DNA of 12,870 nt, from IMG/VR virus record IMGVR_UViG_2585427735_000011. One strand, 5' to 3'. This document shows, in pieces, positions 5,755 to 9,177 of this stretch (its first letter is position 1; each line of letters opens with the position of its first letter). Source of the DNA: a virus. Lineage: Duplodnaviria; Heunggongvirae; Uroviricota; Caudoviricetes. A program made the translations under genes and the position numbers. The notes under the pieces are model-generated. The model did no database searches, was not told the origin of the DNA, and saw nothing but the letters and a program-made list of their open reading frames with translations.

Positions 5755-7281
5755 ATGAAAAAAGCCATAGCATATATGCGATTTTCATCACCAGGTCAGA
5801 TGTCTGGCGACTCATTAAACCGACAGAGAAGACTTATTGCTGAATGGTTAAAGGTAAATAGTGATTATTATCTTGATACCATAACATATGAAGATTTAGG
5901 ATTAAGTGCATTCAAAGGAAAGCATGCACAATCAGGAGCTTTTTCGGAATTTTTAGATGCTATAGAGCATGGTTATATATTGCCAGGAACTACATTGTTA
6001 GTTGAAAGTCTGGACAGACTTTCAAGAGAAAAAGTCGGTGAAGCGATTGAACGTCTGAAATTGATTTTGAATCACGGTATTGATGTTATAACTCTTTGCG
6101 ACAATACAGTCTATAATATTGACTCTTTGAATGAGCCATATTCATTAATAAAAGCCATACTTATAGCACAAAGGGCAAATGAAGAAAGCGAGATAAAGTC
6201 AAGTCGGGTTAAATTATCATGGAAGAAAAAACGGCAGGATGCACTGGAATCAGGTACGATTATGACGGCGTCTTGTCCGAGATGGCTCTCCTTAGATGAC
6301 AAAAGAACGGCTTTTGTTCCAGACCCCGACAGGGTGAAAACTATTGAGCTAATTTTTAAACTCAGGATGGAAAGGCGCTCATTGAATGCAATAGCCAAGT
6401 ATTTAAATGATCATGCTGTAAAGAATTTCTCAGGAAAAGAAAGTGCATGGGGACCTTCTGTAATTGAAAAATTATTAGCGAATAAAGCTCTGATAGGTAT
6501 ATGCGTACCTTCATATCGTGCAAGAGGTAAAGGAATAAGTGAAATCGCTGGCTATTATCCCAGAGTCATATCAGATGATTTGTTTTACGCTGTACAGGAA
6601 ATTCGGTTGGCACCTTTTGGTATTAGCAATAGTAGCAAAAATCCTATGTTGATAAATCTACTTCGAACAGTTATGAAGTGCGAGGCTTGTGGTAATACCA
6701 TGATTGTTCATGCGGTATCTGGAAGTTTGCATGGCTATTATGTTTGTCCGATGAGAAGACTGCATCGATGTGACAGGCCATCAATAAAGAGAGATTTGGT
6801 TGATTATAATATCATTAATGAGTTGCTTTTTAATTGTAGTAAAATCCAACCAGTTGAAAACAAGAAAGATGCTAATGAAACTTTAGAGTTGAAAATTATT
6901 GAGCTCCAGATGAAAATTAATAATTTAATTGCTGCATTATCTGTTGCGCCTGAAGTTACCGCTATAGCAGAAAAAATCAGAGTATTAGATAAGGAATTAC
7001 GAAGGGCTTCTGTATCATTAAAAACTTTGAAGAGTAAAGCGGTGAGTTCACTTGGTGATTTTCATGCTATTGACTTAACCAGTAAAAATGGGCGAGAGCT
7101 ATGTCGTACACTTGCCTATAAAACATTCGAAAAAATCATAATCAATACAGATAATAAAACCTGTGATATCTATTTTATGAATGGCATTGTTTTTAAACAC
7201 TATCCTTTAATGAAAACAATATCCGCCCAGCAGGCGATAAGTACTCTCAAATATATGGTTGATGGTGAGGTTTATTTTTGA
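5755..7281 (+). CDS. ybcK: Large serine recombinase (DLP12 YbcK-like)
   Basis: 508 aa; N-terminal resolvase catalytic motif AYMRFSSPGQ (Y-x-R-x-S-x-x-x-Q); Cys-rich zinc-ribbon-like segment CEACGNT...YYVCPMRRLHRCD; C-terminal coiled-coil-like region. AGGTG RBS before ATG 5755. AT-rich relative to the neighbouring replication genes. Confidence 0.85.
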   Translation: MKKAIAYMRFSSPGQMSGDSLNRQRRLIAEWLKVNSDYYLDTITYEDLGLSAFKGKHAQSGAFSEFLDAIEHGYILPGTTLLVESLDRLSREKVGEAIERLKLILNHGIDVITLCDNTVYNIDSLNEPYSLIKAILIAQRANEESEIKSSRVKLSWKKKRQDALESGTIMTASCPRWLSLDDKRTAFVPDPDRVKTIELIFKLRMERRSLNAIAKYLNDHAVKNFSGKESAWGPSVIEKLLANKALIGICVPSYRARGKGISEIAGYYPRVISDDLFYAVQEIRLAPFGISNSSKNPMLINLLRTVMKCEACGNTMIVHAVSGSLHGYYVCPMRRLHRCDRPSIKRDLVDYNIINELLFNCSKIQPVENKKDANETLELKIIELQMKINNLIAALSVAPEVTAIAEKIRVLDKELRRASVSLKTLKSKAVSSLGDFHAIDLTSKNGRELCRTLAYKTFEKIIINTDNKTCDIYFMNGIVFKHYPLMKTISAQQAISTLKYMVDGEVYF

Positions 7282-7289
7282 GTAATAAT

Positions 7290-7312
7290 CACTTTTTCAA
7301 CCGTGCTATAAT
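7290..7312 (+). promoter_or_regulatory. Candidate sigma70 promoter with extended -10 (TGcTATAAT) immediately after the ybcK stop
   Basis: TGCTATAAT at 7304-7312 matches the extended -10 consensus TGnTATAAT; no convincing -35. Would start a rightward transcript near 7320. Confidence 0.3.
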
Positions 7313-7392
7313 AAGAAAGTTAGGTAAGTACAATAAAATTATCTATCCTGAACGAAGCGTCCTGAGCTATGGTTTTACTATAGAGACTGCCA

Positions 7393-7716
7393 ATGGATGC
7401 TGGCGTTCTCGTTCTAGCAGTTCAACAATACCCAATCACAAAACAATTCACTGATAACGAACTTTGCACACTCGCCTGGTTATGGCGAGCAGGGAATGTG
7501 ATGTTAATTACCTACCAGAACGTTACTCCTCTTCTTCAGGTTGCGGAGCATCGTGAAGCTGGTCGCTTCACTTCTATCGAGCAAGAATATCCCCAGATAC
7601 TCAATAAGGCACAGGCAATCCTTGCCAGAGAAACGGCACATGTAAAATTCCGGCCGTGGCAGGATGATAAGTGGAGTCGAGTTTTGCCGCATTTACGTTC
7701 GGATCGATTACAGTAG
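7393..7716 (+). CDS. Hypothetical protein (107 aa); coding status uncertain
   Basis: ORF MDAGVLVLAVQQYPITKQFTDNELCTLAWLWRAGN...; weak RBS; overlapped by two minus-strand ORFs of similar length. No family recognised. Confidence 0.3.
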   Translation: MDAGVLVLAVQQYPITKQFTDNELCTLAWLWRAGNVMLITYQNVTPLLQVAEHREAGRFTSIEQEYPQILNKAQAILARETAHVKFRPWQDDKWSRVLPHLRSDRLQ

Positions 7717-8177
7717 ATTCCAATTAACAATGAGAAACACATAGCCACCCCGTGGTATTGAAACCATATAATGTTGGATTTGAAAACAGATCTTTTTCCA
7801 TGTATTAATAATTACATCCCCGCGAGTGATTCAAAAAGGAGGGCCCAATTTTGTCCGAGTTTTTGTATTCCCCCGCATGCCGCTGCGGAGCACTACATCT
7901 GAGTGTCTGACTAGGGGATAAAATTAGACTGGATAGTGAGAAGAAAGTGGCGTGCTAGGCTGTGCCGAGTGCTACCAGTACACCCTGGGGGGGTGCAGCT
8001 TTCGCCGAGACTGTAGTGGGTATCGGTTAATGCACGAAAAACCGAGAGGTCAGACAACCAATTTGCCGTAGGATTGTTTCCGGTGCGATACCGGTGTACT
8101 AACTGAAAGCAATGCGAAAAAGCATAAACTCGGTCCTTCAGTCGCCCTACACACTATTTACTAAGAAGGGCTAAAGC
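7717..8177. other. 461-bp ORF-free, relatively GC-rich, stem-rich stretch: candidate structured ncRNA or long 5' leader of the downstream ORF
   Basis: No ORF of 60 aa or more on either strand; by hand scan, + strand stop codons occur in all three frames at intervals of at most about 48 codons. Local stems include CACCC-tgggg-GGGTG (7981-7995), CCGGT-gcgat-ACCGG (8080-8094) and long-range complementarity AGTACACC (7977-7984) / GGTGTACT (8093-8100). Not matched to any RNA family I know. Confidence 0.3.
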
Positions 8178-8534
8178 ATGGATACAATTATCACATGGAT
8201 GGGAGATCGTCTGTTGGGGTGGATAACAAACAAATCCGATCTGCGGCAGAGGGCAATCACTGGATTAACTCCTGCGATTTATTCAACAATTTTATATACT
8301 GAAAAATTAAAACGTGGTGAGTCTAATAACCCAAACGAAGAAGAAAAACTTTATAGGCTTTGGTATGAAGCGTCTTCCCAAGTCGTAGACTTTGATCGAG
8401 AGCTGGCTAAAAGATGTTTAGATAAATCAGAATATTGGCTTCATTCTGAATTATATAGCCCTGAGAAAGTTGGAGAGCTAAACATTTCTTTGGTTGGTAT
8501 GAAGGCAACGCTTGAAGGAATAAAGCACAATTAA
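8178..8534 (+). CDS. Hypothetical protein (118 aa), AT-rich orphan ORF
   Basis: MDTIITWMGDRLLGWITNKSDLRQRAITGL...; AAGGG 7 nt upstream of the ATG; no signal peptide or TM segment evident; no family recognised. Confidence 0.5.
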   Translation: MDTIITWMGDRLLGWITNKSDLRQRAITGLTPAIYSTILYTEKLKRGESNNPNEEEKLYRLWYEASSQVVDFDRELAKRCLDKSEYWLHSELYSPEKVGELNISLVGMKATLEGIKHN

Positions 8535-8721
8535 AACCTTTGATTTGCGATAATCAACTCGCCATAATCATGTCATCGGAGCCTGAACAACTCCGGTGAC
8601 TTCTGCGCTAAACGGGGACGTTTATGCGCACACACAATCCAAACTCTCTTCTCCCTCCACAGATGCAGAAATGCACCTGCGATATATTGTATCCAGCGTT
8701 TGACCTCTGCGGAGGTGAAGC

Positions 8722-9177
8722 GTGAATCTCCCACAAGATGGCATCAAATTACATCGCGGTAACTTCACCGCTATCGGTCGGCAGATCCAGCCTTATCTGG
8801 AGGAGGGCAAATGCTTTCGCATGGTGCTTAAACCGTGGCGTGAGAAACGCAGTCTTTCCCAGAATGCACTCAGCCACATGTGGTACAGCGAAATCAGTGA
8901 ATACCTCATCAGCAGCGGTAAAACGTTCGCTACTCCAGCTTGGGTAAAAGATGCTCTCAAACACACATATCTCGGTTATGAAACCAAAGACCTGGTTGAT
9001 GTCGTAACCGGTGATATCACCACTATCCAGTCGTTACGCCATACCTCCGATCTTGATACCGGAGAGATGTATGTCTTCCTGTGTAAGGTTGAAGCCTGGG
9101 CGGTGAATATTGGCTGCCACCTGACTATTCCGCAGAGCTGCGAGTTCCAGCTGCTCCGCGACAAGCAGGAGGCGTAA
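8722..9177 (+). CDS. ybcN: YbcN-like protein (DLP12 prophage protein, reported DNA base-flipping activity)
   Basis: 151 aa, GTG start, [45 protein letters not shown]... matches E. coli YbcN as I recall it. Confidence 0.8.

Follow-up and report, generated by a model that had tools for sequence, protein, structure and literature searches.

Positions 7816–8145 of the window, the whole 12,870-nucleotide stretch of DNA analysed here, very probably hold a real and previously uncatalogued family of structured RNA. Comparative analysis showed a predicted fold of two domains, tied to each other by a co-varying 6 bp loop–loop contact. We give about an even chance to the reading that this is a stand-alone, lysogen-expressed RNA of about 330–370 nt which would act in trans. 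No genetic system has been annotated more intensively than Escherichia coli with its lambdoid prophages, yet about 3% of complete E. coli genomes, together with phages of Klebsiella and relatives, carry this covariation-supported RNA of ~330 nt that annotation pipelines and RNA databases have missed. It merits an Rfam family, which would end its annotation as an 'empty gap' or as spurious ORFs, and it is directly testable, as the cultured phages Turner, IdasGreatGrand and Kp4856-1 and many lysogens carry it.

Genomic setting

The window covers the early-right region of an E. coli lambdoid prophage that resembles DLP12. In its near-identical RefSeq twin, NZ_CP096834, the gene order is bet and gam; an S24 repressor; replication genes O and P; emrE; the ybcK recombinase; a P22AR C-terminal domain; a gap; a gene for a 118-aa hypothetical protein; and ybcN, ninE, ybcO, rusA, quuD and a porin gene (coordinates of the features discussed are given in Table 1). 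The P22AR remnant (7393–7716) marks a recombination scar directly 5′ of the RNA module. No gene is called in the gap (7717–8177, 461 bp) by RefSeq/PGAP or in the assembly collection. The cultured phages Turner and IdasGreatGrand share the 461 bp stretch, and the Turner record (PP925837) has the gap annotated as two 'hypothetical proteins' of ~40 aa, which are spurious.

The original prediction, made from the window alone, had described the gap as free of ORFs of 60 aa or more and as richer in GC than the downstream ORF, and both descriptions were confirmed. The only ORFs of at least 40 aa within it were 7771–7902 (plus strand, 43 aa) and 7911–8057 (minus strand, 48 aa); a 70-aa minus-strand ORF (7536–7748) overlaps merely its first 32 bases. 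The GC content was 0.50 at 7801–8100, compared with 0.36 at 8251–8550 and 0.32 at 7051–7350. The lack of long ORFs in a gap of 461 bp is the same as in random sequence, and the single-sequence fold was not significant against shuffles (minimum free energy −107.7 kcal/mol, z = −1.08 on the plus strand; z = +0.37 on the minus strand). Single-sequence evidence is weak, and it is the comparative evidence, namely conservation and compensatory substitutions, that establishes the feature in the gap. Judged by conservation, the unit comprises 7816–8145 and an upstream signal of ~60 bp, and is smaller than the full 461 bp.

Two further ORFs were observed on the minus strand elsewhere in the window. An AT-rich 153-aa ORF (943–1404), unannotated in the RefSeq twin, is a full-length match to phrog_3875 (E = 2e-90), a family labelled as RuvC-like resolvase. 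A 61-aa ORF (764–949) encodes an N-terminal fragment of phrog_2361, a family of phage Ser/Thr kinases, and is probably the remnant of an exclusion kinase.

Distribution and conservation

BLAST detected the RNA in 159 of 5,426 complete E. coli genomes (~3%); it was also present in four of 50,697 phage records, in 64 IMG/VR contigs and in 23 metagenome contigs. Exact-pattern scans with three different invariant blocks recovered the same 60-odd IMG/VR contigs, verified by BLAST, and 23 of the 24 gapped-pattern matches in metagenome contigs were genuine. The carriers were lambda-like prophages of E. coli, Klebsiella, Enterobacter and Obesumbacterium. Two Klebsiella phages carry the RNA at 77.5% identity (BLAST), and the copies in Enterobacter bugandensis and Obesumbacterium proteus were found by tracing homologues of the downstream protein. 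Neither close nor diverged copies were found in 72,556 plasmids, and 185,579 species-representative genomes yielded no copy and only two chance-level matches, in Thermincola metagenome-assembled genomes. Two such matches are expected by chance, and L079, the sole one checked, was dissimilar to the element and had its match inside a 602-aa ORF. The pattern matches L005, L026, L050, L057, L073–L075, L077 and L225 were likewise due to chance. When 80 nin regions were anchored on the commonest upstream gene, which encodes a dATP/dGTP pyrophosphohydrolase, four carried the RNA and none a diverged copy. The outcomes of the genome, plasmid and nin-region searches indicate that the element is sporadic, mobile and confined to the Enterobacterales.

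Compared with the copies from Klebsiella, E. coli 3426 and IMG/VR, the core of the window copy was 77–84% identical and contained invariant blocks of 11–18 nt. In a three-way alignment the core ran from ATCCCCGCGAG (7816) to CAGTCGCC (8145) with alternating invariant and variable blocks, and conservation started and stopped sharply at these two positions; the 5′ and 3′ ends given for the RNA were taken from conservation alone. A covariance model scored 353–417 bits on all members. Between the window and the L013 lineage, identity was 98–99% in the RNA, 94% in the 100 bp upstream, ~70% in the 118-aa ORF and ~58–60% in the upstream genes, which are probably not homologous; selection or recombination boundaries must therefore frame the RNA.

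The whole window gave no match to the 4,227 models of Rfam 15 at the gathering threshold. At E ≤ 10, three divergent copies produced only unrelated noise (11–25 bits, against thresholds of 39–70), most of which in L003 and L011 fell on the terminator. ARAGORN found no tRNA or tmRNA gene in the window. No reverse transcriptase lies beside the RNA in the annotated or scanned loci, the other loci being listed as ORFs only, and alignment and structure describe a single, non-repetitive fold. The original prediction, which recognized no known family, no retron and no repeat array, thus holds, and of the checks that it proposed, the Rfam search gave no family match and the comparison of homologues revealed covariation. 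In a full-text search with three invariant blocks, the sole match was a mouse primer, which is unrelated. Keyword searches of the literature did not find the RNA; a 2026 preprint on coevolution-mined ncRNAs ('Minerva') might list it.

Predicted structure and covariation

RNAalifold predicted 82 pairs from 24 distinct sequences, 13 of them compensatory. We curated a model with 16 helices and 90 pairs and tested it on a MAFFT alignment. Standard pairs made up 98.3% of its cells, compared with 33–46% when the 3′ partners were slid by 1–3 columns, and double-sided changes occurred at 17 pairs, compared with one to six in the slid controls. None of 500 shuffles reached the observed covariation score, and the pairing and covariation figures were unchanged in a model-fitted alignment of 32 distinct sequences. 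By eye, the sequences form roughly five or six groups; independent compensatory events are therefore few, and counts of cells overstate them. The candidate structured ncRNA of the original prediction is nevertheless supported, with 17 of the 90 modelled pairs co-varying, the tertiary kissing loop included, and with conservation far above that of both flanks.

In Domain 1, helix P1 was invariant except for one change from A-U to G·U, and P4 and P5 had one compensatory pair each. The 5′ end of the RNA pairs internally, at 7914–7919, and not with the 3′ end as the flanking inverted repeats a1/a2 of a retron would. Several unpaired blocks of the RNA were invariant.

The kissing loop, which was found by searching for stacked alignment columns that are always paired, joins the two domains through 6 bp and occurs in the versions CACUAC:GUAGUG, CGCAAC:GUUGCG and CACCAC:GUGGUG. 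All of its cells were paired, and two of the six pairs were compensatory. The contact may form within one molecule or between molecules, both of which fit the covariation. The alignment is also consistent with a second inter-domain pairing (7906–7912/8048–8054), in which all cells were paired; six of the seven pairs were invariant and one varied one-sidedly (U·G or C-G). An alternative long-range helix, 7855–7862/8126–8133 (CCGAGUUU:AAACUCGG), was rejected, being broken in L008, L011 and L234, where the competing helices P4 and P11 hold.

Table 1. Features of the window in and around the predicted RNA
Feature	Position	Strand	Details
ybcK-type large serine recombinase	5755–7281	+	Resolvase, Recombinase and Zn-ribbon domains; inside the nin region beside emrE
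Orphan P22AR C-terminal domain, 107 aa (truncated antirepressor)	7393–7716	+	
Alternative −10-like box	7767–7772	+	TATAAT in the window; TATGTT, TATATT, TATAGT or TATCTT in relatives
Promoter-like bipartite motif	7780–7809	+	TTGAAA (7780–7785), 18-nt spacer, ATTAAT (7804–7809); ends 6 nt 5′ of the first conserved RNA base
Conserved structured RNA core, about 330 nt	7816–8145	+	Sharp conservation limits, covariance model, covariation
Domain 1	7816–7919	+	P1 (7816–7821/7914–7919) closes P2–P4 and hairpin P5 (7881–7889/7898–7905)
Kissing-loop arm CACUAC, loop of P5	7891–7896	+	Pairs with 8013–8018
Candidate second long-range pairing, 5′ arm UCUGACU	7906–7912	+	Complementary to 8048–8054
Domain 2	7927–8143	+	Closed by long-range P6 (7927–7932/8138–8143)
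Domain 2, helix P7	7943–7950 with 7975–7976 and 7998–8003	+	Three compensatory pairs
Domain 2, helices P8 and P9		+	P8: three compensatory pairs
Domain 2, helix P10	8004–8012/8019–8027	+	Four compensatory pairs; five pair types at one position
Kissing-loop arm GUAGUG, loop of P10	8013–8018	+	Pairs with 7891–7896
Domain 2, helix P11	8041–8046/8129–8134	+	One compensatory pair
Candidate second long-range pairing, 3′ arm GGUCAGA	8048–8054	+	Inside the invariant block 8044–8061 (GAGAGGUCAGACAACCAA)
Domain 2, lineage-variable hairpin	about 8073–8099	+	
Domain 2, helix P14	8112–8115/8122–8125	+	
Spacer between the RNA and the 118-aa ORF	8146–8177	+	Without terminator in the window lineage
118-aa ORF, phrog_12412	8178–8534	+	Downstream neighbour in the window lineage

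Strand and coding potential

The pairs U·G 7948:7998 and G·U 8004:8027 were invariant in all 32 sequences. On the minus strand they would be A·C mismatches, which assigns the RNA to the plus strand. The variable columns were distributed 45/42/45 by codon phase (p = 0.93), so that no three-base periodicity was apparent, and indels of 1 and 2 nt were tolerated within the family. A 61-codon frame starting with GTG, open in some relatives, is closed by TAG in the window lineage (GTG TCT GAC TAG). A Shine–Dalgarno-like AAGGAGG followed after 7 nt by TTG (7838–7853) opens a frame of 19 codons, which is cut by TGA in the L007, L016, L017 lineage and in which the changes were mostly non-synonymous, some of them at two covarying positions of the kissing loop.

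The pattern of variation indicates that 7816–8145 is neither protein-coding nor a pseudogene, and the suggestion in the original prediction that the gap might be a decayed gene is refuted by the even distribution over codon phases, the short indels and the internal ORFs broken in some lineages. That the conserved stretch is something other than an RNA, whether a decayed gene, a gene for a small protein or a site acting at the DNA level, is hardly credible. The strong Shine–Dalgarno-like sequence with its 19-codon frame and the 61-codon frame of some relatives would be in keeping with a small protein, but stops and frame-breaking indels occur within the family, codon periodicity is absent and the substitutions in the 19-codon frame partly follow the covariation of the kissing loop. 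Duplex DNA does not explain strand-specific G·U covariation, and a dead remnant would not hold 98–99% identity beside flanks at 58–70%.

Upstream signals, terminators and neighbouring genes

Both hexamers of the bipartite motif 5′ of the RNA were kept in every lineage (TTGAAW or TTGTAT, and TTTAAT, TTAAAT or ATTAAT), whereas the sequence of the 17-nt spacer was not conserved, and the motif therefore has a promoter-like signature. The second hexamer has T, never A, at −11, and a consensus scanner made no promoter call; A at −11 is near-universal in promoter −10 boxes. The alternative −10-like box belongs to a sequence CCATATnTT conserved about 45–50 nt 5′ of the RNA start, which keeps A at −11 and T at −7 and has no conserved −35 element. 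Either signal may be the start site. A sigma-32-type promoter was rejected by eye on its spacing and its absence in relatives. Dyad symmetries of differing sequence were observed ~45–60 nt 5′ of the RNA start (window 7762–7779; L039, L011 and L234), for example ACCATA-N5-TATGGT and ATCGAAAGA-N8-TCTTTCGAT; they adjoin or overlap the −35-like box, and might serve as an operator or form the hairpin at the 3′ end of the upstream gene.

Directly 3′ of the core, intrinsic terminators of the form CCGCC-loop-GGCGG-U7/8 or GCCACC-GAAA-GGUGG-U6 were found in the L003, L008/L031/L053, L037 and L011 lineages. The terminator stem does not overlap the closing helix P6, from which it is separated by GCC and 7–10 variable nt, and conservation ends before the terminator. 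The sole candidate for an antiterminator, an alternative pairing GUCGCC:GGCGGU, is broken in L003, and no conserved antiterminator was found.

Two main layouts were seen. In five lineages (that of the window, L024, L039, L234 and L236), the RNA is followed directly by the 118-aa ORF, with no terminator; the tail of the window copy (8146–8177) folded no better than shuffles (z = −0.48), and L024, L039 and L236, likewise carriers of the 118-aa gene, have a spacer homologous to it. In the other layout, the RNA and an intrinsic terminator precede the gene for a 178-aa protein with hydrophobic ends or for a 183-aa protein. In the L004 lineage, which encodes 95- and 162-aa proteins, the terminator stem survives only as a degenerate remnant. 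L011 has no cargo after the terminator: the next gene belongs to the nin core and has a promoter-like site of its own. At every locus except L011, an ORF begins no more than about 25–50 nt beyond the RNA or terminator. The upstream genes also differ by lineage (pyrophosphohydrolase, other unidentified ORFs or the P22AR remnant). These arrangements indicate that the RNA is inherited as its own module, consisting of the upstream signal, the RNA and mostly a terminator, inserted sporadically in the nin region.

The AF2 model of the 118-aa protein is a four-helix bundle (pLDDT 78), for which a fold search gave no match below E = 0.1. In the L013/L007 lineages, which account for about half of the E. 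coli-type copies, the ORF is cut to 66 aa and has suffered a further deletion; the RNA is still 98–99% identical. Elsewhere in a phage genome, a homologue of the protein with 50% identity occurs without the RNA. The cargo proteins scanned belonged to no Pfam family (the 178-aa protein was compared with PHROGs only), and PADLOC gave no match for the four scanned, the 178-aa protein not being among them.

Several further observations concern these neighbours. The 183-aa protein of Klebsiella phage Kp4856-1 (L003 4385–4936, plus strand, after the terminator) has near its C-terminus the sequence RHNLLH, recognized by eye as Rx4H and HEPN-like. The 178-aa protein (MNEAWAAITAG...) belongs to no PHROG family and is the commonest gene product right after the terminator in lineages not of the E. 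coli type; it spans roughly positions +345 to +920 relative to the RNA start in L031, L053, L060, L062 and L071, and its start was also seen in L008, L037, L041, L054, L213, L215 and L232. Just 5′ of the ninB/DUF1367-type gene, the window has a promoter-like site (8540–8568, plus strand; TTGATT-17-CATAAT) with an equivalent in L011 (2201–2228, plus strand; TTGAAA-16-CATAAT), and the downstream nin genes may thus have their own start signal.

Possible function

If the RNA is a stand-alone, trans-acting molecule, it would be made in lysogens from its own putative promoter, and its action would depend on how it folds; the likeliest modes are self-assembly and the binding or sequestration of a protein. 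Such a role is favoured because the RNA mostly has its own terminator, which does not overlap the fold, and has unrelated neighbours or none; and because it is kept at 98–99% identity while the ORF decays, and persists in defective DLP12-type prophages. Its invariant unpaired blocks and inter-domain contacts make protein binding or self-assembly likelier than antisense action, and neither simple antisense pairing nor service as a leader for a neighbour is probably its mode. A search for antisense targets in the window gave only chance-level matches; one of them, a 12-nt match to ybcN mRNA (9021–9032), was rejected as no better than chance and as lacking conservation across lineages. In the window lineage, where the terminator is missing, the same RNA would double as the 5′ portion of the mRNA for the 118-aa protein.

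The RNA probably benefits the lysogen in conflict between phages or between phage and host, and STnc6030 offers a precedent for a lysogen-protective role. An RNA that moves as a module and survives while its prophages decay is a promising candidate for a hitherto unrecognized participant in such conflicts. RNAs with this degree of tertiary organization usually prove to be ribozymes, ligand sensors or scaffolds of ribonucleoproteins. More tentatively, and with the balance against it, the RNA could belong to a new class of large RNAs with tertiary structure, whether as a ribozyme, as a self-assembling molecule or as the core of a ribonucleoprotein. It would be of lambdoid origin and kept in the defective DLP12-type prophage of E. 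coli for lysogen protection or manipulation of the host, and its loops may link molecules into multimers instead of folding a single one.

The main rival to a trans-acting RNA is a cis-acting leader or attenuator, which would sense a metabolite, a protein or a factor of an infecting phage and gate read-through of the terminator, or the ribosome-binding site, of a downstream accessory gene. We consider it unlikely as a whole, despite a layout that invites it: in the 178-aa and 183-aa lineages the order is signal, 330-nt RNA and terminator, with a Shine–Dalgarno sequence and ORF within about 25 nt of the last, the 118-aa ORF comes directly after the RNA and a homologous spacer in the five lineages without terminator, L011 is the only locus with no ORF within about 25–50 nt, and the size and tertiary contacts resemble those of large riboswitch or T-box-like leaders. 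Riboswitches and attenuators are typically marked by a terminator and an antiterminator that exclude each other and overlap the sensing fold, and by functionally coherent downstream genes. Here the downstream genes are mutually unrelated (118 aa, 178 aa, 183 aa, 95 + 162 aa, and none in L011), the terminator stem lies outside P6 and beyond the limit of conservation, and the one alternative pairing is broken in L003. A leader would moreover need two mechanisms, with and without a terminator, and in the L013 lineage the 118-aa ORF is truncated beside an RNA kept at 98–99%. Because most lineages have a terminator and unrelated genes or no cargo after the RNA, the earlier proposal of a leader for the 118-aa ORF cannot describe its general role, although it may apply in the window lineage.

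The same order of promoter, RNA, terminator and ORF is that of ToxIN-type loci, and the cargo consists of small proteins of unknown function, one with hydrophobic ends and one with an Rx4H motif by eye. It is nonetheless improbable that the RNA is the partner of a toxin or abortive-infection protein, an abundant, terminated RNA neutralizing a weakly expressed downstream effector in the manner of type III toxin–antitoxin systems: no tandem repeats were seen in the alignment or structure, the one RNA is found beside at least four unrelated proteins and at times beside none, PADLOC matched none of the four cargo proteins scanned, and the 50%-identical homologue of the 118-aa protein exists without the RNA. 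Slightly less probable again is that the element targets the polymerase during transcription, or the long early-right transcript, as a put-like site of processive antitermination or a processing site with no promoter of its own. Its location would suit this, on the same strand as the early-right operon and 5′ of the nin-region terminators and the Q gene, as would the weak promoter assignment. The RNA, however, exceeds put RNAs four- to fivefold in size, the bipartite motif looks promoter-like in being conserved around a 17-nt spacer that is not, and the sporadic occurrence of the RNA (4/80 related nin regions) means that it is dispensable for Q expression.

Comparison with known systems

As a folded RNA with a kissing loop 5′ of a terminator and an ORF, the element resembles riboswitch and attenuator leaders such as the lysine riboswitch and the T-box, from which it differs in having no Rfam riboswitch match, unrelated downstream genes and a terminator outside the fold. 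In most lineages, although not in the window, it shares with the type III toxin–antitoxin systems ToxIN, CptIN and TenpIN the order promoter-like signal, ncRNA, terminator and protein gene. Type III antitoxins are tandem direct repeats of ~34–36 nt processed by the cognate toxin; this RNA, in contrast, is not a tandem repeat array, and its protein partner is not conserved. The pRNA of phi29 is also a phage RNA with complementary loop–loop pairing, on which its function depends. There is no homology to pRNA, however, and the present RNA is sporadic and kept in defective prophages; lambdoid packaging needs no RNA.

Closer parallels exist among the ncRNA 'morons'. STnc6030 of BTP1 is a prophage ncRNA expressed in lysogens that excludes superinfecting phage (doi 10.1101/787010), and other prophage sRNAs include DicF (PMC5069750) and Pas, AgvB and AsxR (doi 10.64898/2026.05.13.724894). 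Like these, the RNA appears to be transcribed as an independent unit within its prophage, has persisted in defective DLP12-like prophages and is plausibly of benefit to the lysogen. The five known RNAs base-pair with their targets, and most are of 50–150 nt, STnc6030 being a long antisense RNA. Unlike them, the RNA described here overlaps no gene in antisense, shows no conserved complementarity to targets in the window and is dominated by conserved tertiary-type structure.

ROOL and GOLLD are large phage-associated structured RNAs of unknown function that have been found to be homo-oligomeric by cryo-EM (PMC12286853). The present RNA has no Rfam match, is smaller (~330 nt) and occurs only in Enterobacterales, in the lambdoid nin region. 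In common with ROOL and GOLLD, it is a prophage RNA of several hundred nucleotides and many helices, with covariation-supported tertiary contacts, invariant unpaired blocks and no known partner, and by analogy with these homo-oligomers its loop–loop contacts could equally be intermolecular.
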